A DNA stretch of 64,000 nt, taken from the IMG/VR virus record IMGVR_UViG_3300021142_000014, positions 1 through 64,000 of that record; one strand, 5' to 3'. The notes under the pieces are model-generated. The model was not told the origin of the DNA. It ran no database searches and worked only from the letters and a program-made list of their open reading frames with translations. Positions 4,072 to 20,881 of this stretch are shown here, piece by piece. This DNA is from a virus. The position numbers and the translations under genes are program-made. The number at the start of each line of letters is the position of its first letter. The first letter of the stretch is position 1.

Positions 4072-4089
4072 GTAAGAAAGGAGGTAATC

Positions 4090-4335: not shown

Positions 4336-4617
4336 ATGTCAGAGACAGTTCTAGCCTGGTCAACAATGATCTGGTCAGATACACCTGAGCCTCAACCCAG
4401 AGAGTTGTATGGAGGTTCACTTCTGTTGGCTGTACAAAACAGATGGAATCGCTCAAGCGACGATCCAGATAGGAAGTTTATACCTGGTCTGCTCGGGGCA
4501 TCACCTACTGTCACTGTTATCAGTGGCACAGGTAATATCGAGGTCGTTATAGCCAACGATCTTAACGAAGTCAGGGTAGAGAATATCAAGCCTAACTTAT
4601 TAGTCATTACAGACTAA
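4336..4617 (+). CDS. Hypothetical protein
   Basis: SD AAGAAAGGA; 93 aa. Confidence 0.7.
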   Translation: MSETVLAWSTMIWSDTPEPQPRELYGGSLLLAVQNRWNRSSDDPDRKFIPGLLGASPTVTVISGTGNIEVVIANDLNEVRVENIKPNLLVITD

Positions 4618-4624
4618 TGGGTTA

Positions 4625-4687
4625 CCCCACCTGGCTATCCACCAGGCTCCTGTTCAATGGAGAGTCAGAGTCAAATCTGACTTGGGG
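4625..4687 (+). ncRNA. tRNA-like cloverleaf (non-canonical)
   Basis: CCCCA/TGGGG closing stem encloses CCTGG/CCAGG, CTCC/GGAG and AGTCAG/CTGACT hairpins; the last has a T-loop-like GTCAAAT; no CCA. Confidence 0.45.
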
Positions 4688-4778
4688 ACGTTACCACTGC
4701 AGGGATGCAGGAGTAACAGCAGTAACCGGTAACTCAGCGGATCTGAGGAAATAAATAAATAAGAGAAGGAAGACTATT

Positions 4779-5510: not shown

Positions 5511-5521
5511 TACCCGCAGTA

Positions 5522-5551
5522 AGACCTGAGGTATGTCTATAAACTGCCTCA
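5522..5551 (+). ncRNA. H-type pseudoknot motif (repeated family)
   Basis: AGAC/GTCT stem; loop TGAGGTA pairs with TGCCTCA after an ATAAAC linker. Confidence 0.65.
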
Positions 5552-5608
5552 CCACCCCCCCTGGGGGATACCTTATAGGTGTATTAGGTTCGATTCCTAA
5601 TGGGGTGG
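5552..5608 (+). ncRNA. tRNA-like element (acceptor stem + T-arm)
   Basis: CCACCCC/GGGGTGG stem stacked on ATTAGG-TTCGATT-CCTAAT. Confidence 0.65.
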
Positions 5609-5656
5609 GCCATGTCGTGAGACATTGAATAAATAAACAAGAAAGGAAGTATAGGT

Positions 5657-5971
5657 ATGATAAACGAGCGAGTCGTTATCACATGGATAGATGAGCCTAA
5701 GCTATTTGACAGGGTATTCCGGAAGAAGGAAATGCGCTGTGGAGTAATTAGAGAGTCATTCCCATCTCTAGAGACTGCAGTTGTCTTTATGACAGAAGTC
5801 TATGGAGTTAATCCTAAGACATGGGTTATTAACCGAGAAGGAGATACTCTTTCCGCGAGTAAGGATCTACGTCCCATGGGCGGGGATAAGTCTATTCGTT
5901 TCACGATAACTAATCTAGTTATATCTAATGACATGTTAGACGAACCATTAGGTATCGATCTAGTGTTCTAG
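5657..5971 (+). CDS. Hypothetical protein
   Basis: SD AAGAAAGGA; 104 aa. Confidence 0.75.
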   Translation: MINERVVITWIDEPKLFDRVFRKKEMRCGVIRESFPSLETAVVFMTEVYGVNPKTWVINREGDTLSASKDLRPMGGDKSIRFTITNLVISNDMLDEPLGIDLVF

Positions 5972-6042
5972 TATAGATCGTTCTGCGTGGGACATACGAA
6001 ATATTATACGGGTGATTTAGGTCTCCGCATTTGTACTTCATA

Positions 6043-6058
6043 TGTTCCACGTGGAACA
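6043..6058. promoter_or_regulatory. parS-type palindrome TGTTCCACGTGGAACA
   Basis: Perfect 16-bp palindrome fitting the bacterial parS consensus TGTTYCACGTGRAACA, in a long non-coding spacer. Confidence 0.6.
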
Positions 6059-6544
6059 TTTATATCGATTCGATATATACTAATAAACTAATATCATATT
6101 ATGCTAATAGGTTATTACATTATTGTAATGCCATCCTAAGCTATGTTAAATGGCCTTGTTATTCAAATTCAGGGGCCTAACGTATGTTGCTAATAAGTTA
6201 ATAGCTTATTATGCTAGACACTCAAACCTCCCGAGTGCGACGCATATGTGCATAGTTTAGAATGGCATTAGGATCATGTATCCTATGAAAAAGCGCATAT
6301 TTTGAGACATGTTTACACATATCTAAGGCATCTCTTTTGTAGGTCTATCTACAATCATATGGAGAGTAGTGGTTCTATGTGGAGCGATGTGGTGTAAAGT
6401 GGTGTGGATACAGTCTCTATAGGTAGCTGTGTAGGTAGTATTCTAGTAAGGGCTGGAGTGTTATCTACAGGGTTATCTATGTACGTGAGTACAGTGGTTT
6501 CTCTCCTTGCCCAGGGTTTGGGTGTTAATAATAAGTAAGGAAGT

Positions 6545-6952
6545 ATGTATATGCTAATGTCACTTTACAGCGCATGCTGGAAGTACGATCAAGTAAGTGT
6601 GGAGGGTTCCCCGCTTGGCTATGTCTTTGATGAATGGCTTAAGCTGTTTGGACACCATCACATTCATGTTGGTTTGTTTGATTTGTCAGATGTATTCTCT
6701 GTGGTTCAAATGGAGGTTTCTCCGCAGGGTGTCTGGCAGTTGACTAGCAGTACTCCGCGACTCAGGGATGAAACAGCAATATCTCTCTTTCAGGCTACCA
6801 AGAAGGTAATCCGTTCAGAGGTAAAGCATGGTCCATATGTGTGTGCAAATAGTTGCTCTCACGGCCGGATCGAGGGTTCATTCCTTCACCTAGTACAGAA
6901 TCAACACATAGATTTGTATAACCCAGAGCGTGATGGAGTAAGTCAGTATTGA
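6545..6952 (+). CDS. Hypothetical protein
   Basis: SD AAGTAAGGAAG; 135 aa. Confidence 0.7.
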   Translation: MYMLMSLYSACWKYDQVSVEGSPLGYVFDEWLKLFGHHHIHVGLFDLSDVFSVVQMEVSPQGVWQLTSSTPRLRDETAISLFQATKKVIRSEVKHGPYVCANSCSHGRIEGSFLHLVQNQHIDLYNPERDGVSQY

Positions 6953-7005
6953 TTATTGCACAGGTCTCCTCCCGATAAGGGGAGGGGGCCGATGGGATGA
7001 TTAAT
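6949..7005 (+). repeat. Conserved stem / internal loop / hairpin element, copy 1
   Basis: ATTATTGCACAG-[GC hairpin]-CGATGGGRTGATTAAT, as at 7226-7284 but with a different inner hairpin. Confidence 0.75.
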
Positions 7006-7037
7006 CCCAATATAAACAAGAAAGAGAGTAAGCAATT

Positions 7038-7229
7038 ATGTCTAATCTAGTGTTAGGTTGCAATTGTGGAGATGATGAATGTGGAAACACAAAACTAAAG
7101 ATTGTGGGGATGGGCGGTAATGAAGCCGGTATCCTCCTTTCTGATAGAGGTGTTGAAAATGCATTCTTTGTTGGTGGCGAAGCGTTACAACACGTCATTG
7201 ACAGTTTAACTAGTATCTCTAATAGTTAA
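7038..7229 (+). CDS. Small hypothetical protein (CxCxxxxC)
   Basis: A-rich leader; flanked by the two conserved stem elements. Confidence 0.7.
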   Translation: MSNLVLGCNCGDDECGNTKLKIVGMGGNEAGILLSDRGVENAFFVGGEALQHVIDSLTSISNS

Positions 7230-7284
7230 TTATTGCACAGCTCATCCAGGGTTAACCCCCTGGGTGGGCGATGGGGTGATTAAT
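7226..7284 (+). repeat. Conserved stem / internal loop / hairpin element, copy 2
   Basis: Same flanks as 6949-7005. Confidence 0.75.
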
Positions 7285-7330
7285 AAAGAAGTTAGTAAGA
7301 ATCACTCCAAATAAGAAAGGAGCAAGGTAC

Positions 7331-7858
7331 ATGGAAACACTGCGTAAGCTGTGTCTTTGTACTTCATTGCTACTGATGGGGAATATGGGAATTTCGGGGC
7401 TAGTTTCGGCTGCCCACGCGCCCGACCTCCCACATCAGGTTCAGACAGTAACTAAGGCTAATCTGCACTGGTATGAGAAAATCATGCCAAGTGTGGTTAA
7501 GCACGAAGTTCCTGCTCTGATGCGATGGAATACAATGGCTACAGATGTAACAGCCGCATGGCCTTCTGCAACTGATCCAACTAGACAATTGCCTATTCAC
7601 ATACAAGCACAGTTTGCCTGTATTCGATACCAAGAGTCTAGAAACCACCTAACTAGTGTAAACATTCACTCTGGTGCTGGTGGTTGGTATCAGTTTACTC
7701 CATATATATGGGGTTTTGCTAGAGGGTACATACATGGATTACCTGCTACACCACAGATGGCAACTGGTGAACAACAATCACTTGTGGCTGTCTGGTATTA
7801 CCAACGTAACCACAGTTTGGTTCCCGAATGGGGTCCAGATCTGAGGATATGTAAGTAA
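7331..7858 (+). CDS. Secreted lysozyme-fold lytic transglycosylase (Rpf/SLT-like)
   Basis: Signal-peptide-like N-terminus; CIRYQES (catalytic Glu), GAGGWYQF, EQQ..VA motifs. Confidence 0.8.
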   Translation: METLRKLCLCTSLLLMGNMGISGLVSAAHAPDLPHQVQTVTKANLHWYEKIMPSVVKHEVPALMRWNTMATDVTAAWPSATDPTRQLPIHIQAQFACIRYQESRNHLTSVNIHSGAGGWYQFTPYIWGFARGYIHGLPATPQMATGEQQSLVAVWYYQRNHSLVPEWGPDLRICK

Positions 7859-7865
7859 TACGGTA

Positions 7866-7906
7866 TCCCCGATGGTCGTAATTCAGGTTCGACTCCTGAT
7901 TGGGGA
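7866..7906 (+). ncRNA. tRNA-like minihelix
   Basis: TCCCCGA/TTGGGGA (7 bp), connector TGGTCGTAAT, TCAGG-TTCGACT-CCTGA T-arm. Confidence 0.75.
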
Positions 7907-7980
7907 GCCGGAGCACAAAAGTGCTGCCCTGGTAGAGCAATCTACTAAAAATAAATAAACAAGAAGAAAGTAAGAAAAAC

Positions 7981-8742
7981 ATGAGTGAAGCAACCTATGA
8001 AGGTATTCCAGTTCCACAGTGCTACAAGGACTTGGAGGATGTGCTCAATGCCGGTGTAGACCGTGTCATTTTGTACGGCCCTCCAGGTACTGGTAAGACT
8101 TACTCTGGCCTCAACTTTGGTATTAACCAAGCTGGTGCCGAGCGTCTTATCTGTTCTGAGGATATGACGAATGCCGATGTCTCAGGTTCTGTCATGCCTA
8201 ATGAGCATGGTGGGTTCACATTCGTTCCAGGTGCTGCATTACGTTCCTGGATCGGTGACGGTACTATCGGTGCTCGTCTCGTTGTTGACGAGATTGACAA
8301 AGCCGGTGGTGACGTACAATCCACTTTGTTGGCATTCCTTGACAGTGTTGAGTCTTCATCGTTCAAGCACCCTTACACTGGAGAGACTTATACTCCAAAT
8401 CCAGGGTTCTCAGCGATCATGACTACTAACCTAGAAGACATGGATGAGTTGCCAGTCGCACTCAAGGACCGTTTTCCGATTGCAATCAAGATTGATGCTG
8501 CACATCCTGCTGCATTGATTGCTGCATTGCCACCGGAACTACGTCAACTTGCAGCTACAATCGTAGCTGGTAAGCCAGGTCAACGTGCTTCTCTACGCGC
8601 ATTCAAAGCGTTTGAGCAGCTTCGTAGTACTCCTGACTTCGGTGTAGAACGTGCAGCTCGCATGGTATTCGGTCGTATGGCTGATCCTATCATTGATGCT
8701 CTCAAGATTGGCACTCTAACTCCTGAGTATTCTCTATCATGA
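7981..8742 (+). CDS. MoxR/CbbQ-type AAA+ ATPase
   Basis: Walker A GPPGTGKT, Walker B VVDEIDK, TTN sensor, ALKDRF arginine finger. Confidence 0.9.
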   Translation: MSEATYEGIPVPQCYKDLEDVLNAGVDRVILYGPPGTGKTYSGLNFGINQAGAERLICSEDMTNADVSGSVMPNEHGGFTFVPGAALRSWIGDGTIGARLVVDEIDKAGGDVQSTLLAFLDSVESSSFKHPYTGETYTPNPGFSAIMTTNLEDMDELPVALKDRFPIAIKIDAAHPAALIAALPPELRQLAATIVAGKPGQRASLRAFKAFEQLRSTPDFGVERAARMVFGRMADPIIDALKIGTLTPEYSLS

Positions 8743-10220
8743 GTTATGACGATGACATTCTCAAGGATGAGGTAATGCCCCTACCAGGGGTTATTACCTC
8801 ATTCCGAGAGGATATTCAACAGCCAATCCAATGGGATGTTGTTCCAACTTCTGGTGAGCTAGGCGTAGGCGTAGACTTTAGTGCTGGTGTAATATCTGTT
8901 CCTCTTTCAGGTGACAGTTATTCTCAGCGTTTACAACTACAACAGCTTATCAAAACTCGTGTTTCTCCAGTTGATGACAAAGTATTATCTGAGTTAGCTA
9001 GGCAATACAAGACTAGTGGTGTTACGCTAGATGTTCTTCGTGTTTCCGAGCAAGCTCGCATCAACAAAATAACAGCTCAGTTTGCTGCTGCTAAGGGGAT
9101 AGTCACGGAGCCTGATGGTCACGAAAAGATATTGGGTAAGAGGTTGGCAACAGCCGGTGATATGCGTTCATGGGATAAAGCAGTGGAGTTCACTGCTCAG
9201 AATGCAGGTACGAAAGCTTTCGATTCATTCGCAAGTGGTATTCGTTCTGTTAATCCTGAGTGGAGTAAAGATCTGCGTAATCTCAATAAACGACTGGGTA
9301 AAACCTTCAACGAATCTGTTCAAGAACTCGGCGATACAAGACCACTTAACTTTGGTAATGATATCGTAGGTCCTAGAGGTTTACGTCACACTCTTTATGC
9401 AGCTAATGAAGTTGCTGAGTTTATGTCTGCAGGCTATAGAGCTCCTCAGAGCATTAAAGCCCTCAGAAGAGACTCAGAGGACAAACGAGCTCGTGAGTGG
9501 GGTGATACCAATGAAGATGGTAAGGTTGACTCTAATCAAACTACACTGGATACATCGGATGTACCAGATGACTTCGAATTTGCCTATGATGATGGTGAGT
9601 TTGGTAAGTTAGTCTGGGCTGAAGATCTGCCGTTGACCGTTGAGGTTAAAGGTTATATGCGCCGTAAAAAGCGTGGTATGCAGTCTGGTCGTAGAGTATC
9701 TTATCCTTCACGTCTACTTACTGACCCAGAGCGCAGAATATTTAGCCAGAAGGTTAAAGTCAAAGGTGGTATCGTTGTCGTTGACATATCAGGTTCTATG
9801 AGCTTGAGTCAAGCAGACATTGAATCCATCGTTGAAGCAGCTCCAGCTGCAGTCATTATGGCATATAGTGATTGTGGTGAGAACAGTCCCAATGCTTGGC
9901 TCCTTGCTAACCGTGGTTGGCGAGTAAGTCACGTTGACAACATTGGTGGTATGAACAATGGTGTTGACGGTACAGCATTGACATGGGCAATTCGACACAA
10001 GAAGTATGGTGAAGATATTGTCTGGGTCAGTGACGGTCAGATTACCTCAATGAATGGTGGACAACGAGATGAGTTGGCAATTCAATGTGCTAAGTTAGTC
10101 AAGAAGCACAGGATCATTATGATTCCTAGTGTTCAAGAAGCAGTCGCAATGTTTAAGAAAGGTAAGCTTATCAACAAGCCTGCCGGTCCTATTCGCGATG
10201 CTTTGCTTGGTAAACTTTAA
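8739..10220 (+). CDS. von Willebrand A (MIDAS) domain protein, partner of the AAA+ ATPase
   Basis: VVDISGSMS MIDAS and WVSDG; ATGA overlap with the AAA gene. Confidence 0.85.
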   Translation: MSYDDDILKDEVMPLPGVITSFREDIQQPIQWDVVPTSGELGVGVDFSAGVISVPLSGDSYSQRLQLQQLIKTRVSPVDDKVLSELARQYKTSGVTLDVLRVSEQARINKITAQFAAAKGIVTEPDGHEKILGKRLATAGDMRSWDKAVEFTAQNAGTKAFDSFASGIRSVNPEWSKDLRNLNKRLGKTFNESVQELGDTRPLNFGNDIVGPRGLRHTLYAANEVAEFMSAGYRAPQSIKALRRDSEDKRAREWGDTNEDGKVDSNQTTLDTSDVPDDFEFAYDDGEFGKLVWAEDLPLTVEVKGYMRRKKRGMQSGRRVSYPSRLLTDPERRIFSQKVKVKGGIVVVDISGSMSLSQADIESIVEAAPAAVIMAYSDCGENSPNAWLLANRGWRVSHVDNIGGMNNGVDGTALTWAIRHKKYGEDIVWVSDGQITSMNGGQRDELAIQCAKLVKKHRIIMIPSVQEAVAMFKKGKLINKPAGPIRDALLGKL

Positions 10221-10224
10221 TCAT

Positions 10225-10254
10225 GCGTTCCTTGAGTAACGTTATGTAACTCAA
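10225..10254 (+). ncRNA. H-type pseudoknot motif
   Basis: GCGTT/AACGT stem; loop TTGAGT pairs with ACTCAA. Confidence 0.55.
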
Positions 10255-10355
10255 AGACCTGGGGGTCTATCAAGCGACCCTCAGGTGCCATGCATATCAT
10301 ATGGTATGCAGTGTGCTAAATAGCACTGTAGTAAGAAAAAGCAAGGAGTAAGTAG

Positions 10356-10733
10356 ATGGAAGAGTTTAATCTCGACTTGATGCTTGACGAAGCAGCAAAT
10401 GCACGTATTGCCCACGCTGATTACCTTAATCGGGTTAAAGATTGGGGTGTTGAAATGGGGCAAATCATGGAGCCATTCACTTCAGTTGCCATGATCCTTA
10501 TGGATGATGACAGGGATGAGGATGATTTTAATCTTATGTGCAGAATGTTTCCTTTAGGACTTCAATTAGCCGTTGATAAGTTAAATGAATTCTATGAAAC
10601 AATGCAGAGTGAAGCAATAAAAGTCCTTGGTGCACCATTTCAACTTCATGATCAACACCATCCTTTGTGTGGAGAAAATGATAATAAATGTGGACACCAA
10701 GATCACTACATGCCCAAGCAAGAAGACGAGTAA
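10356..10733 (+). CDS. Hypothetical protein, probable paralog of 11888-12220
   Basis: SD AAGGAG; shares LDE..R..(H/Y).D and G.PF with 11888-12220; C-terminal DQHHPLC motif. Confidence 0.8.
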   Translation: MEEFNLDLMLDEAANARIAHADYLNRVKDWGVEMGQIMEPFTSVAMILMDDDRDEDDFNLMCRMFPLGLQLAVDKLNEFYETMQSEAIKVLGAPFQLHDQHHPLCGENDNKCGHQDHYMPKQEDE

Positions 10734-10763
10734 TCGTCATAAATAAGAAAGAAAGTAAGTAAT

Positions 10764-11051
10764 ATGTCCAAAGAAACAAGACAAGCAATACTTGGAATGA
10801 AGAATTGCATTGCTCAAGAACAAGACATTGATCAGTTACGTGATGCAGCTTTTGGTGTTATTGAGCTGCTCACTGATGTTGATCGGTTAATTGAACAAGA
10901 AAAAGAGCAAAGTGGCAAAGTCATTCTACAACTTGTAGGTGTAATTGAAACTGCAAGTAAAGCTCTTGATCAAGCAGGTATTGAATTGTTTAATACTGAC
11001 ACAGTAAAAGAATTGGTAGATTTTGCCAATAAAGTTACTAAAGTTAATTAA
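10764..11051 (+). CDS. Hypothetical helical protein
   Basis: A-rich leader; 95 aa. Confidence 0.75.
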   Translation: MSKETRQAILGMKNCIAQEQDIDQLRDAAFGVIELLTDVDRLIEQEKEQSGKVILQLVGVIETASKALDQAGIELFNTDTVKELVDFANKVTKVN

Positions 11052-11870
11052 TCATTGACATGAATGAAATGCTCTCATAAACTCTCTAAGACTCAGGTCT
11101 GTTGAGATGGGTTATGAAGAGTGCTTTTCCTTCTTGTTGTTGCATCTTCATAGCCCTTCTGGACAGGCCAGGGGGCTTTATTGATCTGTGAAAAAGCCAG
11201 CTATGTCAACCCGCCAGATTGGATGTTATATTAATCCAGAGTGCCTAGTTGCAAGTCTTGCATTTCACAAACCCAGCCTAAAGGGGAAGCTTAGGTAGGA
11301 AGTAACATCCTTAACAACACACTATGAGGTCTAGGCCACTGACCCAAAAAACGTGGCAATCCCATATAACTTTTATCGGTTATATGGGACCTAGTCACAT
11401 TATGGTACAAGACTTAAACGGTTCCATACGCTAGCATCGTACTGCAACCCACTATAAAGGGAAGTTTATAGAAGGTTTACCATTTCACCTAAATAATATA
11501 ATAAAGGGGCACATATGCCTAAAATATGTTGTGGGCTTACTACAATAAACGCGCCATACTTCTTGGTTGGTAGGTTAGGAACCAAGGTCGCTTTGAGCAT
11601 AGCGTCGGGAATAAAGCTCAACCTATACATGCTGTCATGGTGTGTATAGGTGCCAAGTCCTGAACAAGACTATACCACAGTTGCAGGTGTAAAAACTGTT
11701 CAAAACTCAGCATGTGGAGAAGCACATGTAGGTTAAATCACCTTAAGTATAACCTGTTGGTGGTATAGGTGAGCCAACTACCTTAGAGTGTGAAGGCAAC
11801 TCTGGTGTTGTGAGTGGATCCTTATCGAACTCTCCGTCCTGGGTATGACGTTAAAGTGCCCACTTAAATA
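11052..11870 (+). ncRNA. Candidate ~820-nt large structured ncRNA (or a cluster of small structured RNAs)
   Basis: No ORF of 60 aa or more; dense hairpins, five or more pseudoknots, long-range helices such as 11236-11246 with 11794-11805. Confidence 0.65.
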
Positions 11871-11887
11871 ATAAACAAGGAGTAAGT

Positions 11888-12220
11888 ATGGATGAGAAAG
11901 AATTCAATTCTTTACTCGATGAAGAAGTGTCTACACGTTTACATTACGGAGATTCTGTAGGTAAACTAAAGACAATATTCATGGATATGGCAACACCAAT
12001 CTTATGGCTGAAAGGTGCCAGTGAAAACTGGGAAGACCTTGATGAGGATTCTATGGTTGTTGTTGGTAAATCATTAGAAGAATTGGTTGAATATGTCCGT
12101 GCAACTATGAAAGAACTATTGGATGTAATTCAAGATAGTGCTACATATTTGTATGGCGAACCATTCAATGAAGAATCATTCCATGGAGCAAACTGTCAAT
12201 GTGACAGAGATCATAAGTAA
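11888..12220 (+). CDS. Hypothetical protein, probable paralog of 10356-10733
   Basis: SD AAGGAG; C-terminal H/C cluster. Confidence 0.8.
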   Translation: MDEKEFNSLLDEEVSTRLHYGDSVGKLKTIFMDMATPILWLKGASENWEDLDEDSMVVVGKSLEELVEYVRATMKELLDVIQDSATYLYGEPFNEESFHGANCQCDRDHK

Positions 12221-12233
12221 GAAAGGAATTATC

Positions 12234-12467
12234 ATGAATGTTAAAGGCGTTCAAACTGGAGCGGAGTTAGTTATTACTATTAACTTTGATAACGTTAATC
12301 AGTCAGAAATCTTTAATAGGCTATTTGTAGAATGTTTACAAAAAATGGCTGATGAAGATGGCTCTCAATTAATGGATATCAAGGGAGATAGAGTAAAAAA
12401 CCTTCGTCAAACAGAAATAAGTGAATCAACAAGTAAATTATCGGAGAAATTTAATAATTGGATATAG
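12234..12467 (+). CDS. Hypothetical protein (start moved to MNVKG)
   Basis: SD AGAAAGGA before 12234. Confidence 0.7.
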   Translation: MNVKGVQTGAELVITINFDNVNQSEIFNRLFVECLQKMADEDGSQLMDIKGDRVKNLRQTEISESTSKLSEKFNNWI

Positions 12468-12474
12468 GAGTTAA

Positions 12475-12870
12475 ATGTCTCGAATGGTAACATGGCGTCG
12501 GGATAGAGAAGAAGCAATGTGGAAAGCAAAGACTGCAGGATATTCAATTAAGTTTGATTTAAAACTTGAATTATCTGCAGGTATTCAAAGTGCATTGATA
12601 AATAAAAATGCAGTGCTTAAAGTAATGCGTCCTATCCCAGGCACCAATAAGAAAGAATTGTTATTTAGTAAAGAATTTTCGTCTAGCTGGATAGCTAAAG
12701 ATACTATAGATTCTTTACTATTTTTATGCTATAGTCTTTTTATAGTTTTAGGAGAAAATGAACAAGCTGAACAGTGGTTTATCGATACTCTAAGTAATTT
12801 TAAAGGTGTGGATTACCCTGAACAACCAGATCCATCAGATTATACTAAAATGTTTAAATATTATAAGTAA
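12475..12870 (+). CDS. Hypothetical protein
   Basis: SD AGGAG; 131 aa. Confidence 0.75.
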   Translation: MSRMVTWRRDREEAMWKAKTAGYSIKFDLKLELSAGIQSALINKNAVLKVMRPIPGTNKKELLFSKEFSSSWIAKDTIDSLLFLCYSLFIVLGENEQAEQWFIDTLSNFKGVDYPEQPDPSDYTKMFKYYK

Positions 12871-12876
12871 TAAATA

Positions 12877-12936
12877 ATCGATAACCCCGTGAGGGGTCTG
12901 TATGGGATGACCTCCATGCACTGATGAGATAGGTCA
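12877..12936 (+). ncRNA. Type II hammerhead ribozyme with loop pseudoknot; GAUAA core variant; predicted cut after C12898
   Basis: ATC-GATAA-CCCC(GTGA)GGGG-TC / TGTATGG..CCATGCA-CTGATGA-GAT; loop TGACCT pairs with 3' AGGTCA. Confidence 0.85.
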
Positions 12937-12952
12937 AATTAAGAAGGATAAT

Positions 12953-13348
12953 ATGGATAATGAAATGTCAGATGAACTGAAGTTGCAACTCATTAAAACT
13001 CAGTTTAATAACTTGACAATGTGTATTAAAATGCAAATCACAATTCAGACTACTCTTGAAGCATACCGACAGTATGTTGCTGGTGAGTTGCCAGAAGTGT
13101 TCAACGATGTTGTTGAAACTGAAGCATTTAAAGACACTTTTAATCAAGCTGTTCAAGCTAGTACTGAAGTTCTTCAGAATCTTATTACGTTTGCAGATAA
13201 CGTAGGTTCTGTCTTTGGAATTGATTTCAGAGCACAATTGCCTAAAAACAATGATGAACTTAATCAGATGACTAAAGATTTACATGATGAATTGCAACAA
13301 CAAAGAGAATCCGATCAAGAATTTGATTGGGAATTTAAAGACAAATAA
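12953..13348 (+). CDS. Hypothetical protein
   Basis: SD AAGAAGGA; 131 aa. Confidence 0.8.
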   Translation: MDNEMSDELKLQLIKTQFNNLTMCIKMQITIQTTLEAYRQYVAGELPEVFNDVVETEAFKDTFNQAVQASTEVLQNLITFADNVGSVFGIDFRAQLPKNNDELNQMTKDLHDELQQQRESDQEFDWEFKDK

Positions 13349-13378
13349 TTAATGTATTAAATAAAGTAAGGAAATAAC

Positions 13379-13537
13379 ATGACAGTAAAAACATTTATAT
13401 GTCCACTTTGTAAAGAATCTTGGACAGGGCATCCCGCTTTGTCTAGGGTTGATAACAAGACTGATATTTGTTCACCTTGTGGCATGCAAGAAGGTTTTAA
13501 TGACTACTTTGGTGTACCATTGCAGTCAATCGATTAA
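13379..13537 (+). CDS. 52-aa zinc-finger protein (CPLC...PALSR.DN...ICSPCG)
   Basis: Manual translation; SD AAGGA. Confidence 0.75.
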   Translation: MTVKTFICPLCKESWTGHPALSRVDNKTDICSPCGMQEGFNDYFGVPLQSID

Positions 13538-13540
13538 TTA

Positions 13541-13604
13541 GTCGATAACCCCCGTGAGGGGTATTCATAGGATTGACCGCCTATGGACTGATGAGACAGG
13601 TCAA
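13541..13604 (+). ncRNA. Type II hammerhead ribozyme; GAUAA variant; predicted cut after A13563
   Basis: GTC-GATAA-stem III-TA / TTCATAGG..CCTATGGA-CTGATGA-GAC; pseudoknot TTGACC/GGTCAA. Confidence 0.85.
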
Positions 13605-13630
13605 AGTAAGAAATAAGAAAGGAAGTAAGT

Positions 13631-14263
13631 ATGTCAGAAATGATTTGGGTAGCCAAACGTGACGGCAGTGGTTGGATTTCTAATCGCACACGTGACGTAG
13701 TTGACCTAGCATTTACTGTAAGCCGTGAACATGGTGATTACTATAGTGAAGTGTTGATTCGTTCAACATGGCACGATGGTGATGATGCGCGTGCGACTAG
13801 AATTATTGGTCGTATGTATTTTGCTACTAACAAAAATGCTAAGGCAATTATTGAAGACATTATTAAAGAAGCCAATGGAACCTTCATCGTTAAGGATGCT
13901 GGTCGTGAATGGTTGCTTAATAAAATGCTTAGTATATCCATTGATGAAGGTTTAAAAGGTAAAAGTATTTTGTTTCCTTATGCAATCATTAATCATAAGT
14001 ATATACGTAAAACACCGCCAGTTCCAACTACAACTGTAACGCCAACAACGGCTCCAGTTAGCCATGGATTGTTTAAGCCTGTTATGACTAAAACAACTAT
14101 AGATGAATCAGTTGAAGCTGAGGTGGAACAACGTTTAGCATCAATGTCATCTAACATGATAGAAACTATTACTGAAGTAACAGAAACTGTAAAACCAGTA
14201 ATAGAAACACCAAAGACTATTGTTATCAATGGTAAAGAAATAACTATCGGTTGGCCTAGCTAA
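13631..14263 (+). CDS. Hypothetical protein with Pro/Thr linker
   Basis: SD AAGAAAGGA; 210 aa. Confidence 0.8.
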   Translation: MSEMIWVAKRDGSGWISNRTRDVVDLAFTVSREHGDYYSEVLIRSTWHDGDDARATRIIGRMYFATNKNAKAIIEDIIKEANGTFIVKDAGREWLLNKMLSISIDEGLKGKSILFPYAIINHKYIRKTPPVPTTTVTPTTAPVSHGLFKPVMTKTTIDESVEAEVEQRLASMSSNMIETITEVTETVKPVIETPKTIVINGKEITIGWPS

Positions 14264-14270
14264 CTGAGCA

Positions 14271-14314
14271 ACCCCACCATGGTGGCTTGAGACAGTTCAA
14301 TTCTGTCTTGGGGT
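14271..14314 (+). ncRNA. tRNA-like minihelix
   Basis: ACCCCA/TGGGGT stem, TGGT-containing connector, GACAG-TTCAATT-CTGTC T-arm; followed by a GNRA hairpin. Confidence 0.65.
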
Positions 14315-14368
14315 GCTACGTCGGGAGACGTTAGAGTAAGTAAATAAACAAACAAGTAAAGGAATAAT

Positions 14369-14722
14369 ATGAAAGCAATAGTAGCATCTGCTGATTTTAA
14401 ACTTGATGTAGTTGAGTTTAATGAAAGTAAATCATATGAAACTATACGCGATGCAGTAGATGGCATGTTTGATTGTGTTCGTCTACCTAGTTTAGGTGTA
14501 GACATGTGGGTTAATGATGAAGGTAAATTAAATAACCTTGATTTAAACCCATTTGGTACCGCATTGTGGGTTTCAGAATATGGTATGACTGATATTGTTG
14601 TTGGTGATGTAATTATTACCGGTGGTACTGATGGTGAAGGTAAAACATTAGGTATGACCAATGAGCAGGCAATTGAAGTATTAAAATCTGCTCGTGCAAT
14701 GATGGATGAATTAATTAAATAA
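14369..14722 (+). CDS. DUF3846-like phage protein
   Basis: AVDG..DCV, MWVNDEGK, IVVGDVIITG motifs. Confidence 0.75.
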   Translation: MKAIVASADFKLDVVEFNESKSYETIRDAVDGMFDCVRLPSLGVDMWVNDEGKLNNLDLNPFGTALWVSEYGMTDIVVGDVIITGGTDGEGKTLGMTNEQAIEVLKSARAMMDELIK

Positions 14723-14750
14723 CAAATATTAAGTAAGAAAGGTAAGCAAG

Positions 14751-15134
14751 ATGGGATTAGATCAGTATGCATATGCTGTTATGCCGCATCCAGATAATAC
14801 AGATTTGAGTTATGTCTGGACTCATGAACAATATGAAGGCAAAGTCTTTTTAATTGCTCAATGGCGTAAACATCCTAATATTCAAGGTTGGATGGAAAAG
14901 CTATATGAAAGTAAAGGTGGAGAACGTGTTTTCAACTGTCAACCAGTTCGAGTGACATTTCAAGACCTTATTAATCTTAAGTATGCTGTAATAAATGAAA
15001 AGCTTCCAGTAACTCAAGGCTTCTTCTTTGGTGAAAGTCTACCAGAAGATAGAGAAGATGACCTTAAATTTATTGAGGATGCTATGAAAGCTATCGGACA
15101 AGATATGGAAATCTATTACGATAGTTGGTGGTAA
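14751..15134 (+). CDS. Conserved phage hypothetical protein (MGLDQY...WRKHP...YYDSWW)
   Basis: Recurrent phage family motifs; SD present. Confidence 0.8.
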   Translation: MGLDQYAYAVMPHPDNTDLSYVWTHEQYEGKVFLIAQWRKHPNIQGWMEKLYESKGGERVFNCQPVRVTFQDLINLKYAVINEKLPVTQGFFFGESLPEDREDDLKFIEDAMKAIGQDMEIYYDSWW

Positions 15135-15141
15135 TAAGGTA

Positions 15142-15183
15142 GCCTTGATGGTCGTAGAGTAGGTTCGACTCCTACTCAAGGCA
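15142..15183 (+). ncRNA. tRNA-like minihelix
   Basis: GCCTTGA/TCAAGGC (7 bp), connector TGGTCGTAGA, GTAGG-TTCGACT-CCTAC; same geometry as 7866-7906 with compensatory stem changes. Confidence 0.8.
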
Positions 15184-15234
15184 CTACGTCGGGATGACGT
15201 TAAACAAACAAACAAGTAAGAAAGTAGGATAAAC

Positions 15235-15651
15235 ATGGGAGACCGTGGACAAGTACAACTTATTGGTACATATGGATCAGAGCATTCTATCTATCTATAT
15301 ACCCATTGGGGAGCTAGTCATCTAGAAAACGTTGTAGCTGACGCTATAGTACGTGGCAAGGGTCGTTGGAGTGATGACGAATACCTTAACCGTATTATCT
15401 TCAGTGAAATGATTAAAGATGATGTAATGTCTGATACTGGATATGGTATCGGACTTTCTCTTCATGGTGATACATGGAAGTTAGTTGTTGTAAATCACAT
15501 TGACCAAACTGTTGGTATTAAGGTAGTTAACTATGATAAAGTTGACTGGCAAAACTACAACGAAGACGATGTTGTATGGGATTGGGAACTAGAGCCAGTA
15601 CCTTTTGAGGTGTTTGTTTATCTTAATAGTTTAGTTACAACAAAGGAATAA
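15235..15651 (+). CDS. Conserved phage hypothetical protein (MGDR...YLYTHWG)
   Basis: Recurrent phage family motif; leader and SD. Confidence 0.8.
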   Translation: MGDRGQVQLIGTYGSEHSIYLYTHWGASHLENVVADAIVRGKGRWSDDEYLNRIIFSEMIKDDVMSDTGYGIGLSLHGDTWKLVVVNHIDQTVGIKVVNYDKVDWQNYNEDDVVWDWELEPVPFEVFVYLNSLVTTKE

Positions 15652-15653
15652 TA

Positions 15654-15818
15654 ATGGGTAAAAAATTAGACAAAGCTTTTTATCAATTGAGCAATGAAAC
15701 TCGTCATCACATTAACTTAGCAATGGCTAAGCAAACTGATTTTGAGAATGGATTTGCTCAAGGATTTGCAGAAGCATTACGCATAGTAGCAAATATAAGA
15801 GAGAAGGAGAATGAGTAA
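15654..15818 (+). CDS. 54-aa hypothetical protein
   Basis: Manual translation MGKKLDK...IREKENE; SD AAAGGA. Confidence 0.6.
   Translation: MGKKLDKAFYQLSNETRHHINLAMAKQTDFENGFAQGFAEALRIVANIREKENE
15769..15809 (+). repeat. 41-bp exact direct repeat (second copy 16070-16110)
   Basis: CAGAAGCATTACGCATAGTAGCAAATATAAGAGAGAAGGAG occurs twice. Confidence 0.9.
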
Positions 15819-15993
15819 AACATATATATATAATGTACAGTTTGTGTTTGACTATGCTGTGCTCATAACTACGATTACATCTGACTCTGAAGATGACGAT
15901 GTAATTGAAAAAGAAGCATTGGGATGGTTAGAACACAATGGATTTGCTATTAAAAATACTATCAATGATATAATTATTGAGGAAATAGAATAG
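15811..15993 (+). CDS. Small acidic hypothetical protein
   Basis: 60-aa ORF between the 41-bp repeats. Confidence 0.65.
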   Translation: MSKTYIYNVQFVFDYAVLITTITSDSEDDDVIEKEALGWLEHNGFAIKNTINDIIIEEIE

Positions 15994-15999
15994 TAAAGA

Positions 16000-16060
16000 A
16001 TCGAAACGCCGGGAGGCGTCTGTATGGATTAGCCACCATGCATTGATAAGATAGGCTAAT
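16000..16060 (+). ncRNA. Type II hammerhead ribozyme; UUGAUAA (U3-A8) core; predicted cut after C16020
   Basis: ATC-GAAA-CGCC(GGGA)GGCG-TC / TGTATGG..CCATGCA-TTGATAA-GAT; pseudoknot ATTAGCC/GGCTAAT. Confidence 0.85.
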
Positions 16061-16112
16061 AGTAAGGAACAGAAGCATTACGCATAGTAGCAAATATAAG
16101 AGAGAAGGAGTA

Positions 16113-16301
16113 ATGAAAGAATACTACACAAGAGTTTCTATGGACGTTCTTGTTATAGCAAAAAATCCTGAAGAAGCAACTGATAAATTGAATCAATGGT
16201 TGGATGGTCAACAATTGATTGACAAATCAACAGGGTCTGACTTCTGGTGGGACGACATTAATTGGGATGACTGGACTGCTGTAGAATCAGAAAAAGAATA
16301 A
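16113..16301 (+). CDS. Small Trp/Asp-rich hypothetical protein
   Basis: SD GAAGGAG. Confidence 0.7.
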   Translation: MKEYYTRVSMDVLVIAKNPEEATDKLNQWLDGQQLIDKSTGSDFWWDDINWDDWTAVESEKE

Positions 16302-16302
16302 A

Positions 16303-16548
16303 ATGGATATGAACTGGCGAGATGATGCCGCTTGCATTGGTGCCTCTATTGATATTTTCTTTATAGATGAAAAAGGTAGAGGTGCTAATGCAAAGTTAGC
16401 AGAAGCTAAACAATATTGCGATTCTTGTCGGGTTCGTGAAAATTGTCTTAATTACGCTATGGAAAATAACATATATGTTGGTATCTATGGTGGATTAAGT
16501 AATAAAAAACGTAGAGAAATGAAAAGAAAGAATGGATTATGGGTTTAA
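16303..16548 (+). CDS. whiB: WhiB-family transcription factor
   Basis: WRDDAAC...AKQYCDSCRVRENCL...GIYGGL: four Cys plus the G(I/V)(W/Y)GG turn. Confidence 0.9.
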   Translation: MDMNWRDDAACIGASIDIFFIDEKGRGANAKLAEAKQYCDSCRVRENCLNYAMENNIYVGIYGGLSNKKRREMKRKNGLWV

Positions 16549-16666
16549 CTTTAAATGATTTTGGTTTAAAATCACCAACTACATTAGCAGAAGCTGAAGC
16601 TGTTATATCTAATTTATTAGATCGTTGTGATCAATTAGAAGAAATAATTATAGAAATGGAAACATA

Positions 16667-16870
16667 ATGGAATATCATTTTGTAGTAAACTGGTCTGAAG
16701 AAAATGGCTGGGTTATAGATTGGGAAATTACCATTGCTAAATTTAAGGGTAATAATGTATACATTCCTAACATAGATGAATGGGTATTTCCTGGTAAAGA
16801 TACAGAAACAGGAGACAAAGAAAAACAATTAATTGATTTATTAGAAAAAGCATTAGATAATATAAAGTAA
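16667..16870 (+). CDS. Hypothetical protein
   Basis: In a co-oriented gene run. Confidence 0.65.
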   Translation: MEYHFVVNWSEENGWVIDWEITIAKFKGNNVYIPNIDEWVFPGKDTETGDKEKQLIDLLEKALDNIK

Positions 16871-17046
16871 GGAACAAATATGCAAAAACATACTGCAATA
16901 GAACAATGGGAAATATACAAAGTATTACAATGTGTTCTTGAAGCAAAGAAAAATATCCAAGGAGGTGAGTACAATAAAGCTATACAATCCCTTAATTCAT
17001 GTTTATGGATGATGGGTATAGATGGATTAGAATAAGTTAGGATAAT

Positions 17047-17289
17047 ATGATAGTAAGTAATGAAGCTAAGTTGCAGAAGGTAAGCTCAATAGTAGATGAG
17101 ATCAGTAAACTAGAGTATCGGTTTAATGAACTATTAGCTGGGTTTAAACTCTACAATGAACACAAAGGTACGTTTGACATTGATCTATATGAGAAAAGTC
17201 TAGCGTTGTTCAATAATGCCATAGCAGCATTAGAGGAACAAATGATTAATTTTCATAACCTTTTACGAGAACTGAAAGGAACATTATAG
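17047..17289 (+). CDS. Hypothetical coiled-coil protein
   Basis: SD AGGA. Confidence 0.65.
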   Translation: MIVSNEAKLQKVSSIVDEISKLEYRFNELLAGFKLYNEHKGTFDIDLYEKSLALFNNAIAALEEQMINFHNLLRELKGTL

Positions 17290-17294
17290 TAAGT

Positions 17295-17353
17295 ATCGAA
17301 ACGCCGGGAGGCGTTTATGGGAGATTGCCTACCCATACTGATGATGATAGGCT
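17295..17353 (+). ncRNA. Type II hammerhead ribozyme; GUU triplet, extra U after CUGAUGA; predicted cut after U17315
   Basis: ATC-GAAA-CGCC(GGGA)GGCG-TT / TATGGG..CCCATA-CTGATGA-T-GAT; pseudoknot GCCT/AGGC. Confidence 0.85.
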
Positions 17354-17378
17354 ATAATAAAGAAAGGAGGAATAAACT

Positions 17379-18068
17379 ATGGTTAGTAAGTTATCTGATG
17401 TAATTTCTAAAGTTCAAAAACTACTCCGTGTTGCAGAAAGTAGCGACAAGATCGGTGAAGTTGAAGCAGCTCAGTCATTAGCTCAAGAGTTAATTACTAA
17501 GTATCAGATTGAAGAAGCTATGTTAAATAACCATATTGGTGAAGGTGGAATCATATCTCTTCGAGTAGAAACACCTAAACCATATGCTATTGATAAGAGT
17601 GTTTTGCTTAACTCTATTGCTAAATATAACTTTTGTAAAGTTCTACGCGGCGATACATACTGCATGATATATGGTTATGAAAGCGACATACAATTATGTA
17701 TTGCATTATACAATGCATTGTCTCTTCATATGATCAATGAGATGAGAGTTAAATTACATAAAACTAATGAAATTAAAGCAGAAAGACATCCTAAAGCTTG
17801 GGCTAAAGGTTTCTTCAGTGGATATGCTATATCTATAGAAGAACGTATAAGGTTTTCTAAGTCTAAAGTTATTAAGGAAGTTGAGTCTGATGTTAGCAAA
17901 TCTTTAGAGCTTGTAGTTAGAGATAAACAACATGCTATTGAAGAATACTTTCAAAAGTTAGACCGTAAGAAAGCTACTGATCGTAAATTAACCTCAGTTT
18001 CTGGCTACCGTGCTGGTATAGACAGTGGCAAAGAAGCTAATATTAATCAATTAACAATAGAAGGATAG
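17379..18068 (+). CDS. DUF2786-domain protein
   Basis: KVQKLL..AE...E.EAA...AQELITKY N-terminus; GY.AG...G C-terminus. Confidence 0.85.
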   Translation: MVSKLSDVISKVQKLLRVAESSDKIGEVEAAQSLAQELITKYQIEEAMLNNHIGEGGIISLRVETPKPYAIDKSVLLNSIAKYNFCKVLRGDTYCMIYGYESDIQLCIALYNALSLHMINEMRVKLHKTNEIKAERHPKAWAKGFFSGYAISIEERIRFSKSKVIKEVESDVSKSLELVVRDKQHAIEEYFQKLDRKKATDRKLTSVSGYRAGIDSGKEANINQLTIEG

Positions 18069-18073
18069 ATAAA

Positions 18074-18394
18074 ATGAGTAAGATTATTAATGGTTGGAAG
18101 TTAAAGCAATTAGCAGCAACTCTACCAGATAATAAAGGAATTGAATGGGTTGACGAAGCTAAATGCAACGGCAAAAACGTAGATGATTTTGTCTATGCTA
18201 GCGCAATGCCTACATTGAGTCAACGCCATAAGCTTAAGAAAACTTGCGAAGGTTGCCCCGTTATGCTAACTTGTAGGTACGAAGCTGTTCGTAACCTTGA
18301 AGAAGGTTGGTGGGGTGGCATGGACGAAAAAGAACGTGCAGTATGGGCAGCGGAGGAGCTGTTTAATGAAGATAGCTTACATACTACTATATGA
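18074..18394 (+). CDS. whiB: WhiB-family protein (divergent)
   Basis: WVDEAKC...CEGCPVMLTC...GWWGGM. Confidence 0.8.
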   Translation: MSKIINGWKLKQLAATLPDNKGIEWVDEAKCNGKNVDDFVYASAMPTLSQRHKLKKTCEGCPVMLTCRYEAVRNLEEGWWGGMDEKERAVWAAEELFNEDSLHTTI

Positions 18395-18557
18395 CATTGG
18401 AGATGGCGCTGCCGAAGTCTCTGGGGTCTATTCTAGTTTAACATCTGCTAAAAATGCTGTAGGTGTTGGTATAGAATGGAAAGAAAACCTTGCTGGTCTT
18501 TGGGAAGCATATACTGATCGTTTATGGTATATCGAAGCTCATGGGTTGCAGGATTAA
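18366..18557 (+). CDS. Small hypothetical protein (start moved to MKIAY)
   Basis: GGAGGAG upstream. Confidence 0.6.
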   Translation: MKIAYILLYDIGDGAAEVSGVYSSLTSAKNAVGVGIEWKENLAGLWEAYTDRLWYIEAHGLQD

Positions 18558-18567
18558 AGGATAAGCA

Positions 18568-18879
18568 ATGGATATATTTGATAGTAACGAAGATAAAATA
18601 AATTTAACAATGGTTGCTTATGAAGTTGGCATGGCTACACTTGGTAAAATCATTGATTATTATAATCAAATGTTGTTAATTACAGTTACCCAACTGTCAG
18701 AGCTTTCTGATAAAACACCCAATGAAATTAGAATAGAAATAGAAACTCAGCTTGGTTTGCTAGGTGCAATGGATACTTACTTAGAAAGATTGCAAGCAAC
18801 TTCTGACTTTAATAAAGAAATGCTTGGCATTACTGACGAGGATGTTGAAAGAATACTTGACGAATTCCCAGAAGATTAA
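18568..18879 (+). CDS. Hypothetical protein, last gene of the + strand block
   Basis: SD AAGGA; converges on the terminase gene. Confidence 0.75.
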   Translation: MDIFDSNEDKINLTMVAYEVGMATLGKIIDYYNQMLLITVTQLSELSDKTPNEIRIEIETQLGLLGAMDTYLERLQATSDFNKEMLGITDEDVERILDEFPED

Positions 18880-18880
18880 C

Positions 18881-20881
18881 TTATATCTTCTTTTGACTTC
18901 TAGACATACCACCGTAGTCTCTTGCAGAACGCGCAGCACCAAACTTTTGTAGTTTCTGTCTAGCACTTATAGGCCCATTGTCTGCACCATTGCGGGTGTG
19001 GTATCCACCCTTAGCACCTGGATAAAGATCTGTATTACTTAACCTATCACGCATCTCTAGCTTAACAAAGTTATCTTCAAGCAATGCATCAACAATTACC
19101 ATGATACAGTCAGAAAGATCTTCTGTGCGTATAGGTCCAAAGTCTTGCTTACGCACTCGACCATTCACTTCTTGCAAGAACTTAAGTTCCTGTTCTAATA
19201 GACTAGTTCCATCAGGACCGTAGTTATCACGATATGAATGGATCCAATTCATACCAATAGCAGACTTAAAACGCTCTGCTCTACGCATATTGCTTTGCCC
19301 AGTAAACTTTTCCTCACGAATGATTACCTTGTGTGGAGGATTTACTTGCTTAAGACGTTTTTTTAGCCTAGGCAGCGTAACAAATGCTCCGTACTGGTCA
19401 AACGAAAAGACCTTGGTTGTTCTAAAATCACACAGCGTTCTTACGAGCTCTTCTTCGATCTCTTCATAGTCTATTTGATTATCTTCGTAATCTTCTGGAT
19501 TCCATACTTTAATCCAGTCTATGATAACGTGATACCATTCTTCACCATCTTCTTGGTCCGGTATCTTTTCAACGTGTCCAATCATCGCTGCTGTGTTAGC
19601 ACCACTCTTTGAAGGGTCGCAGTGTCCTTGATAGATTATGCTAAATTTACCTTCATATTGTGGCTCTAAAATGATGAGATCACCGTCTGCATTAACATAT
19701 GGTTCAAACATACGCTCTACCATCTTAGGGTTGAGGTAAGCATTAGTAACTTCAGCCCATTGAGAAAGACGCTCTACCTTGAATGCATCAGGTTCACGCT
19801 TCTCTAAACGCTTCATAGATTCATCGTATGCCTGTGGAGCACCACGGAAATTAAACCCACCAGTTGCTCTTGGGTCATCCCAGTCTTCGTAAGGTCCCCA
19901 CGATGGCAACTGCACCATCATCATATCTGGATAGGATGGAGTATTTGTTTCATTATCTCGTTCTATAGCAGACTCATATAGGCTATATGCTTTACCAACT
20001 TTGGTGAATGGAGATGTTGGAATATAAATAAACCCATCTTTACCAAATTGGTCCAATGCAGGAGTAATAGCATTATATACTTCTTCACTCGTACGTGAAC
20101 CACCCGTACCAACTAACATGTGTGCAAACTCATCGAACATAACGCCAAAAGCCGCAGCACCACGACTAGCTTTAGAGTTACTTGTAACAGCCATGTTTCT
20201 GATTGATGCAATCAAACGACTAGGGCGAATGCCTCTAGCTTCGAACGCTGCAATTCTACGAAGGTCAGCAGGTGTACGCAATGCAAGAAAGTGCTCCTTA
20301 GCATCAGCGATATATGGCTGAAAGCATGGAGCATCAATGATAGTGTTAGCAAGGTCAGCAAACTGGAATTGTTTGGCCTGTTGAATGTTGGTAGCCACAC
20401 AGAACATATACATGTCCTTAGACTTGTCGATACCGTAATGGTACTGAGGATCATCTAGCATAAGCAGGCCCCAGTTGATATAAGCACCTATGATACCACC
20501 GATGTGGCCTTTACCACCACGACGGCCTGTGATGTTTACCACTTCACGGAAATGCTTATAGCCATTATCTTTAAGATAAGCTACACGTTCAAGAACATCA
20601 GGAGACACACCAATACTTGTGCCATTGCGATCGAATCCCTTTGTCCATCCATCAATGACTTCATAATCATAATCTGTCATATGCTCTGTCTCTAAGCATA
20701 TGAGACGAAGTAGAGTCTTTTGGCGTGGATATAGCCTACGTCCCAAGAACTCTGGATGCTCAGCAAACGTGACAATATCAGGGAGATCTGGTGTCTCGAT
20801 TAAGCTTTTTTTAGCTATCTCGAAGAAGTCATGCTGACCCTTGAGGATATTAGCATTACTATTTTTGGTTACTTTTGCCAT
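18881..20881 (-). CDS. terL: Terminase large subunit
   Basis: LYPRQ, Walker A-like GRRGGK, Walker B FDEFAH, nuclease HCDPS...DLSD. Confidence 0.9.
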   Translation of the reverse strand: MAKVTKNSNANILKGQHDFFEIAKKSLIETPDLPDIVTFAEHPEFLGRRLYPRQKTLLRLICLETEHMTDYDYEVIDGWTKGFDRNGTSIGVSPDVLERVAYLKDNGYKHFREVVNITGRRGGKGHIGGIIGAYINWGLLMLDDPQYHYGIDKSKDMYMFCVATNIQQAKQFQFADLANTIIDAPCFQPYIADAKEHFLALRTPADLRRIAAFEARGIRPSRLIASIRNMAVTSNSKASRGAAAFGVMFDEFAHMLVGTGGSRTSEEVYNAITPALDQFGKDGFIYIPTSPFTKVGKAYSLYESAIERDNETNTPSYPDMMMVQLPSWGPYEDWDDPRATGGFNFRGAPQAYDESMKRLEKREPDAFKVERLSQWAEVTNAYLNPKMVERMFEPYVNADGDLIILEPQYEGKFSIIYQGHCDPSKSGANTAAMIGHVEKIPDQEDGEEWYHVIIDWIKVWNPEDYEDNQIDYEEIEEELVRTLCDFRTTKVFSFDQYGAFVTLPRLKKRLKQVNPPHKVIIREEKFTGQSNMRRAERFKSAIGMNWIHSYRDNYGPDGTSLLEQELKFLQEVNGRVRKQDFGPIRTEDLSDCIMVIVDALLEDNFVKLEMRDRLSNTDLYPGAKGGYHTRNGADNGPISARQKLQKFGAARSARDYGGMSRSQKKI

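Follow-up and report, generated by a model that had tools for sequence, protein, structure and literature searches.

We analysed a 64,000-nucleotide (nt) stretch of viral DNA (positions 1 to 64,000 of the IMG/VR record IMGVR_UViG_3300021142_000014, one strand; hereafter the window) and found four type II hammerhead ribozymes, HH1 to HH4, on its + strand. The record represents an uncultured virus genome of 99.7 kb, 69% complete by CheckV. The four copies lie within 4.5 kb, in gaps of about 80-120 nt between + strand open reading frames (ORFs), and they add new, so far unannotated members to a known ribozyme family (Rfam RF02276), in a setting of a known kind. They stand out only in that no slot of this phage lineage holds a consensus core. 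Judged from sequence, HH1-HH4 are quite probably working RF02276-family type II hammerheads, carried on an early polycistronic RNA of an uncultured phage whose host is probably actinobacterial. Anatomy, covariation, family membership and placement carry this reading; from them we infer cleavage, stability of the products and a benefit for expression.

From 5' to 3', each of the four elements consists of the 5' strand of stem II, GA(U)AA, the stem III hairpin, UH, the stem I hairpin, CUGAUGA or its variant and the 3' strand of stem II (Table 1). Stems I and III are thus closed by loops and stem II is open, as in the type II permutation. A pseudoknot of at least 4 base pairs (bp) joins loop I to the nucleotides directly 3' of stem II in every copy, with a different sequence each time (UGACCU, UUGACC, UUAGCC and GCCU in HH1 to HH4). 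Comparison with the hammerhead core (C3 U4 G5 A6 N7 G8 A9, G12 A13 A14, A15.1-U16.1 and a non-G residue 17) revealed one deviation per copy, residue 17 being C, A, C and U in HH1, HH2, HH3 and HH4, respectively. Stem III has 4 bp with a short loop in all four, and this loop is a GNRA tetraloop in HH1, HH3 and HH4. Minimum-energy folds recovered stems III and I of each element. Single-sequence folding gave weak z-scores (-1.0 to -1.9), which is normal for a pseudoknotted RNA of 60 nt, and these were set aside as evidence. A preliminary description of this DNA, made from the sequence, had placed four type II hammerheads at these + strand positions, and both our reading of the sequence and the descriptor search described below bear this out. 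Its account of the core deviations (GAUAA twice, UUGAUAA, and an extra U after CUGAUGA) was right in every case, and the triplets and predicted cuts that it gave are, by sequence, those of Table 1.

Table 1. Hammerhead elements HH1-HH4 of the window, with their predicted cut sites and adjoining genes. R1 is the covariance model built from the four elements.
Element	Position	Strand	Class and core	R1 score (bits)	Stems	Predicted cut	Pseudoknot	Upstream gene	Downstream gene
HH1	12877-12936	+	type II hammerhead, U13a core (GAUAA); CUGAUGA	92.5	stem II AUC/GAU; stem III CCCC-GUGA-GGGG; stem I 7-8 bp	after C12898 (GUC)	12908-12913/12931-12936, 6 bp	element 6 nt past stop of ORF 12475-12870	stem II end 22 nt upstream of ATG 12953
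HH2	13541-13604	+	type II hammerhead, U13a core (GAUAA)	79.6	stem II GUC/GAC; stem I 8 bp	after A13563 (GUA)	13573-13578/13599-13604, 6 bp	element 3 nt past stop of ORF 13379-13537	stem II end 33 nt upstream of ATG 13631
HH3	16000-16059	+	type II hammerhead, GAAA with UUGAUAA (U3-A8 replacing C3-G8)	89.2	stem II AUC/GAU	after C16020 (GUC)	16029-16034/16054-16059, 6 bp	element 6 nt past stop of ORF 15811-15993	stem II end 60 nt upstream of ATG 16113
HH4	17295-17352	+	type II hammerhead, GAAA, CUGAUGA with extra U17345 between A9 and G10.1	88.1	stem II AUC/GAU	after U17315 (GUU)	17327-17330/17349-17352, 4 bp	element 5 nt past stop of ORF 17047-17289	stem II end 30 nt upstream of ATG 17379 (DUF2786 protein)

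The descriptor comprised a 3-bp stem II, GAAA or GA-N-AA, a stem III hairpin, U followed by a non-G residue, a stem I hairpin, YUGAYRA, one optional inserted base and finally the partner strand of stem II. A search of both strands of the 99.7-kb genome detected HH1-HH4 and one weak match at 75710, whereas none of 40 shuffled genomes yielded a match. The weak candidate (75710-75785, outside the window; GAGAA, CUGACGA, long irregular stems) was not found by the covariance model and was rejected, being probably a chance match. Rfam at its gathering threshold reported no hammerhead in the whole window and only two tRNAs. In E-value mode over positions 1-20000, the hammerhead-model search suggested in the preliminary description did recover HH1 as the sole hammerhead, with 31.1 bits against the RF02276 cut-off of 37; HH2, HH3 and HH4 were not reported even in this mode. 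We also considered intrinsic terminators as the identity of the stem III hairpins and rejected them, as no U-run follows the hairpins; no terminator-like sites were found on the + strand of the four gaps. Counts from a promoter and terminator scan were not above those of shuffled sequences and are uninformative on transcript ends.

Support for the fold also comes from related sequences in other viral stretches. A degenerate pattern search supplied 36 uncultured-virus stretches from IMG/VR, in which R1 found 113 matches, 98 of them distinct, often with many per stretch. On the phage's own genome R1 detected HH1-HH4 and nothing else. In the alignment of the 98 distinct sequences, 96.1% of helix cells were paired (67.9% after shuffling; none of 500 shuffles reached the observed value), double changes were present in 365 cells, and 13 of the 15 pairs were altered on both sides. 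The covariation score was 0.69, compared with 0.15 for shuffled and at most 0.075 for slid alignments, and sliding lowered the pairing to 30-41%. This alignment was fitted to the model and therefore favours the structure, but the margin is large nonetheless. For the pseudoknot, the longest Watson-Crick helix between each loop I and its own tail averaged 4.9 bp, in comparison to 3.0 bp when tails were permuted (standard deviation 0.1, maximum 3.48 in 2000 permutations). Together, descriptor, covariation and tail permutation confirm the 3-bp stem II, capped stem III and covarying loop I/3'-tail pseudoknot that had been proposed. Stem II itself is nearly invariant throughout the family.

The gathering score of RF02276 was passed by 21 R1 matches in ten other viral loci. 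HH1-HH4 therefore belong to the Rfam type II family, within which they represent a subfamily, with a 4-bp and usually GNRA-capped stem III, that is poorly detected by the Rfam model. The type II hammerheads described by Perreault et al. 2011 (PMC3088659) share with HH1-HH4 the permutation, the core outside the deviating positions, the partner regions of the pseudoknot and the intergenic setting in phages. HH1-HH4 differ from them in scoring below the cut-off, in their 4-bp stem III with a short loop and in the single core deviation of each copy.

Among the 98 distinct sequences, the GA-core reads GAAA in 87 and GAUAA in 5. The second core strand is CUGA-N-GA in 82, CCGAUGA (U4C) in 4 and UUGAUAA in one; an extra U after A9 occurs in 8 members, and the triplets are GUC (86), GUA (8) and GUU (4). 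A second IMG/VR search that allowed any base in GA-N-AA had 102 matching stretches, of which the 80 listed were scanned. Raw matches there numbered 82, with T inserted in 30, A in 20, G in 18 and C in 14, but only four distinct matches passed the structural filter, all with U among the stretches listed and too few for a firm preference; they come from the lineage of the present phage and from two unrelated contigs, L028 and L078. For the position affected in HH4, De la Pena and Flores reportedly described in 2001 an extra nucleotide between A9 and G10.1 in the hammerhead of a viroid, CChMVd, and a U there is said to have raised the rate. The other variants have precedents in Perreault et al. 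2011 (PMC3088659), which describes type II hammerheads with a loop I/3'-tail pseudoknot in phages. According to this source, U3-A8 covariation is natural "in several hammerhead ribozyme examples", a U13a "inserted in the GAAA region" is predicted to point outward with minimal change to the core (Figure 5), and a viroid carries U4C (Ambros & Flores 1998, as cited there). The statement in the preliminary description that type II hammerheads and core variants are known from phages, with a role that is still unresolved, agrees with this account. Each variant type of HH1-HH4 (U13a, U3-A8, U after A9) is thus already documented and none is individually new. We read the core changes as tolerated natural variants, not as damage to the ribozymes. 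The preliminary description took them to tune the cleavage rate, for which we found no direct support. They may be nearly neutral rather than attenuating, because U3-A8 is a compensatory pair, which needs two coordinated changes, and because U13a is predicted to change the core minimally (PMC3088659). A more distant relative contains a family member (L012:5030-5109, - strand) with CUGAAUGA, in which an A is inserted after A6 and stem II is weak; an insertion of this A6a type is reported as poorly active by Perreault et al. (PMC3088659).

Synteny with the window across the hammerhead region extends to two IMG/VR records, of 88.6 kb and 116 kb (loci L026, L002 and L034). Each has four hammerheads, no more and no fewer, and these occupy the slots of HH1-HH4. 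Identity of the flanking DNA is only 67-74% at slots 1, 2 and 4, while slot 3 is part of a segment with 96% identity. In the diverged slots stem I is mostly rewritten with its pairing kept, and stem II shows an A-U to G-C change. The core is unchanged across the relatives in slots 1 and 2, U13a included; the syntenic copy of HH2 (L026 6241-6322, - strand), for instance, retains GAUAA in flanking DNA that is 73.6% identical. The copies of HH3 in L026 and L034 are identical, but their position in the 96%-identical segment makes this identity uninformative. Slot 4 of the relative has U4C with GUA, in contrast to the U after A9 and GUU of HH4. Counting the present phage and its syntenic relative, 7 of 7 distinct copies in the lineage are non-consensus, compared with clear variants in 11 of 89 members elsewhere (about 12%); counting six low-scoring and possibly misaligned matches as well raises the latter figure to 17 (about 19%). 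Because the copies of the lineage are paralogs, they represent only about four independent variant events. The prevalence of non-consensus cores in the lineage is suggestive but not conclusive. A search for related loci with the DUF2786 protein returned one distant locus only and no further orthologous slots.

The comparison also revealed exchanged modules. Stem I and the pseudoknot of HH1 are found in slot 2 of the relative (window 12871-12972 against L026:6220-6320), and those of HH2 are found in L012:526, where they accompany another stem III and a consensus core (window 13533-13605 against L012:537-607). Recombination in this mosaic region may take place at the repeated elements of about 60 nt. 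Upstream of the hammerheads, part of the ORF-free interval 11052-11887 (11099-11472) is 90.7% identical to L026, whereas the flanking coding DNA is 71-79% identical, which suggests that 11099-11472 is a conserved non-coding element.

The placement of the family relative to genes is regular. Across the 98 members, the distance from the preceding stop codon to the start of the hammerhead has a median of 7 nt and does not exceed 20 nt in 52 of 77 cases. The end of stem II precedes the next start codon by a median of 23 nt; for 87 of 95 members the distance stays within 40 nt, and 79 of those 87 have a Shine-Dalgarno motif. A Shine-Dalgarno motif is also present upstream of the start codon that follows each of HH1-HH4. 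When the 3' products were folded, stem I began at nucleotide 1-2 and the Shine-Dalgarno sequence was mostly unpaired in the centroid folds. The suggestion that the 5'-OH product keeps a structured cap fits with stem I starting directly at the cut and with the consistent placement.

We propose that stems III and I would fold as each element is transcribed, and that the 3' tail would then pair with loop I, docking stem I on stem II with its 3 bp. Catalysed by the core, the 2'-OH of residue 17 would attack the phosphate that follows, and the two products would be expected to separate fast, because only the 3-bp stem II holds them together. Since the cut lies between stems III and I, the upstream product would end with the stem III hairpin, i.e. 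a GC-rich, GNRA-capped hairpin bearing a 2',3'-cyclic phosphate. The downstream mRNA would start with a 5'-OH at stem I, followed by the pseudoknot tail and, a few nucleotides on, the ribosome-binding site. In this way the operon would be divided into cassettes with hairpin-protected ends and uniform leaders, and co-transcriptional cutting of the polycistronic early RNA into such cassettes appears to be the most likely function. A functional analogy is provided by RiboJ, reportedly an engineered type III sTRSV hammerhead with an added hairpin that was introduced by Lou et al. in 2012 as a ribozyme insulator. There, a hammerhead upstream of the ribosome-binding site removes upstream RNA and leaves a uniform, hairpin-led leader. 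RiboJ shares no ancestry with HH1-HH4, and an insulator effect of HH1-HH4 is suggested by analogy. Cutting of transcripts by hammerhead clusters in prophages is a general idea already put forward by Perreault et al. (PMC3088659), who showed cleavage of some of these ribozymes both in vitro and in E. coli.

Several observations weigh against working ribozymes. None of HH1-HH4 reaches the RF02276 gathering threshold of 37 bits, mainly because of the core changes. HH4 combines the shortest pseudoknot (4 bp) with GUU, the rarest triplet of the family (4 of 98). HH3 is 60 nt away from its gene and not right beside the ribosome-binding site. Finally, termination 3-7 nt upstream would place the ribosome over stem II and GAAA, and cleavage and translation may therefore disturb each other. 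Another reading is that the deviating cores are themselves selected. The early cassettes could have their ratio or their timing set by slower or condition-dependent cutting, with Mg2+, temperature, translation of the upstream ORF or binding of the 30S subunit beside the pseudoknot as possible conditions. The ribozymes would then be kinetic dividers that set cassette stoichiometry or timing via selected sub-maximal or translation-sensitive cleavage. We regard this as unlikely, although several features agree with it. With stops 3-6 nt upstream and a Shine-Dalgarno motif soon after the pseudoknot, folding could face competition from ribosomes. The lineage is enriched in GUA and GUU triplets, and Perreault et al. 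(PMC3088659) speculate that slower phage variants may respond to conditions. All four copies here and all four in the syntenic relative (U13a, U13a, U3-A8, U4C) are non-consensus, but these are module-exchanging paralogs and amount to about four independent events, not eight. U13a persists where the flanks are only 67-74% identical, yet it is predicted to be structurally minimal (PMC3088659). U3-A8 is isosteric, a U after A9 reportedly raised the rate of a viroid hammerhead, and the more distant L012 has a consensus core together with the stem I of HH2. If selected attenuation were true, the lineage would be a natural allelic series for probing what phage hammerheads are for.

The deviations might instead mark decay, with some or all of the four copies inactive and their hairpins kept as mRNA stabilisers, RNase sites or recombination linkers. 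We consider this very improbable. Every copy does have a core deviation and a score below the Rfam threshold, and some hammerhead-like variants were found to be inactive (PMC3088659), but all other invariant core positions are intact in the four copies and in their diverged orthologs, and U3-A8 is a compensated pair. The deviations are moreover of recurrent, documented kinds, the insertion in GAAA being always U (4 of 4 structure-passing matches, among the stretches listed). The shuffling of modules between slots (L026 slot 2, L012:526) fits a role as recombination substrate; the pseudoknot, however, is required for catalysis alone and nevertheless covaries. Hammerhead cleavage yields 5'-OH and 2',3'-cyclic phosphate ends, which are suited to ligation, and this is the right end chemistry for a further scenario in which RNA between hammerheads is excised and circularised or spliced, via a hybrid hammerhead or a host ligase of the RtcB type. 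Neighbouring stem II strands are compatible (AUC/GUC with GAU/GAC), but with stem II near-invariant in the whole family this compatibility is uninformative, and ends separated by 0.6-2.4 kb would probably not stay joined through a helix of 3 bp. The possibility is raised by Perreault et al. (PMC3088659), who sought spliced or circular products and found none, and we give it hardly any credence. Working hammerheads that cut the early transcript remain our preferred reading.

Clusters of hammerheads are known from prophages. Perreault et al. (PMC3088659) list a triple arrangement at ardA of Agrobacterium tumefaciens as well as clusters in Clostridium scindens and Azorhizobium caulinodans. Cleavage of these clusters was seen in the course of in vitro transcription, and for A. 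tumefaciens in E. coli as well. The present array resembles them in having several ribozymes on the same strand that flank single genes or short gene blocks. It is unlike them in that all copies belong to one type II subfamily, lie in the early region of a virulent-looking phage with WhiB and lack a consensus core. The natural core variants documented earlier were isolated cases, whereas the present operon combines three kinds of variant without a consensus copy.

The hammerheads are located in a block of small + strand genes that includes WhiB (16303-16548; 7.7e-19), DUF3846 and, directly after HH4, the DUF2786/DUF7168 protein. Pol III alpha, DnaB and an SNF2 helicase are encoded on the opposite strand. 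The host is probably actinobacterial because WhiB is present. A blastn search with 12400-17500 against 50,697 deposited phage records revealed no match. Other array-bearing records have 4-12 R1 matches each, on one strand and within a few kb, and three of the five also encode WhiB. Other uncultured phages (L003, L022 and L001/L014; records G001, G002 and G004) have 9-12 family hammerheads each in one strand-coherent block of 3-14 kb, and some hammerheads of L022 have stem III insertions of 40-50 nt and U4C cores.

Other structured RNAs were detected in the window. Two further gaps of the same operon (14268-14336 and 15140-15205, + strand) contain a tRNA-like minihelix with a 7-bp acceptor-like stem and a T-arm whose loop has 7 nt (UUCAAUU or UUCGACU). 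3' of the minihelices follow N-CUA, a small hairpin (ACGUC-GGGA(U)-GACGU) that resembles hammerhead stem III plus UH, an A-rich leader and a ribosome-binding site. The minihelices could be processing sites for RNase P or RNase Z and do the same job as the hammerheads. A weak Rfam match to 'Plastid-ycf2' on the - strand (15142-15184) was rejected, as it is really the T-arm of a minihelix on the opposite strand. The two tRNA genes are adjacent (51684-51841, - strand; 59 and 56.9 bits), the second with a long variable arm.

Why phages carry hammerheads is a question that has been open since 2011. The present locus leaves knowledge of the ribozyme class itself unchanged; it adds four unannotated ribozymes that are missed at the Rfam threshold, and it belongs to a type II subfamily whose arrays are found in many uncultured phages, WhiB being encoded by several of these. 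The placement rule of this subfamily, about 7 nt after a stop codon and about 23 nt before a start codon, makes the mRNA-cassette model concrete and testable, and the all-variant cores are a small natural collection in which the importance of core changes in vivo could be examined.

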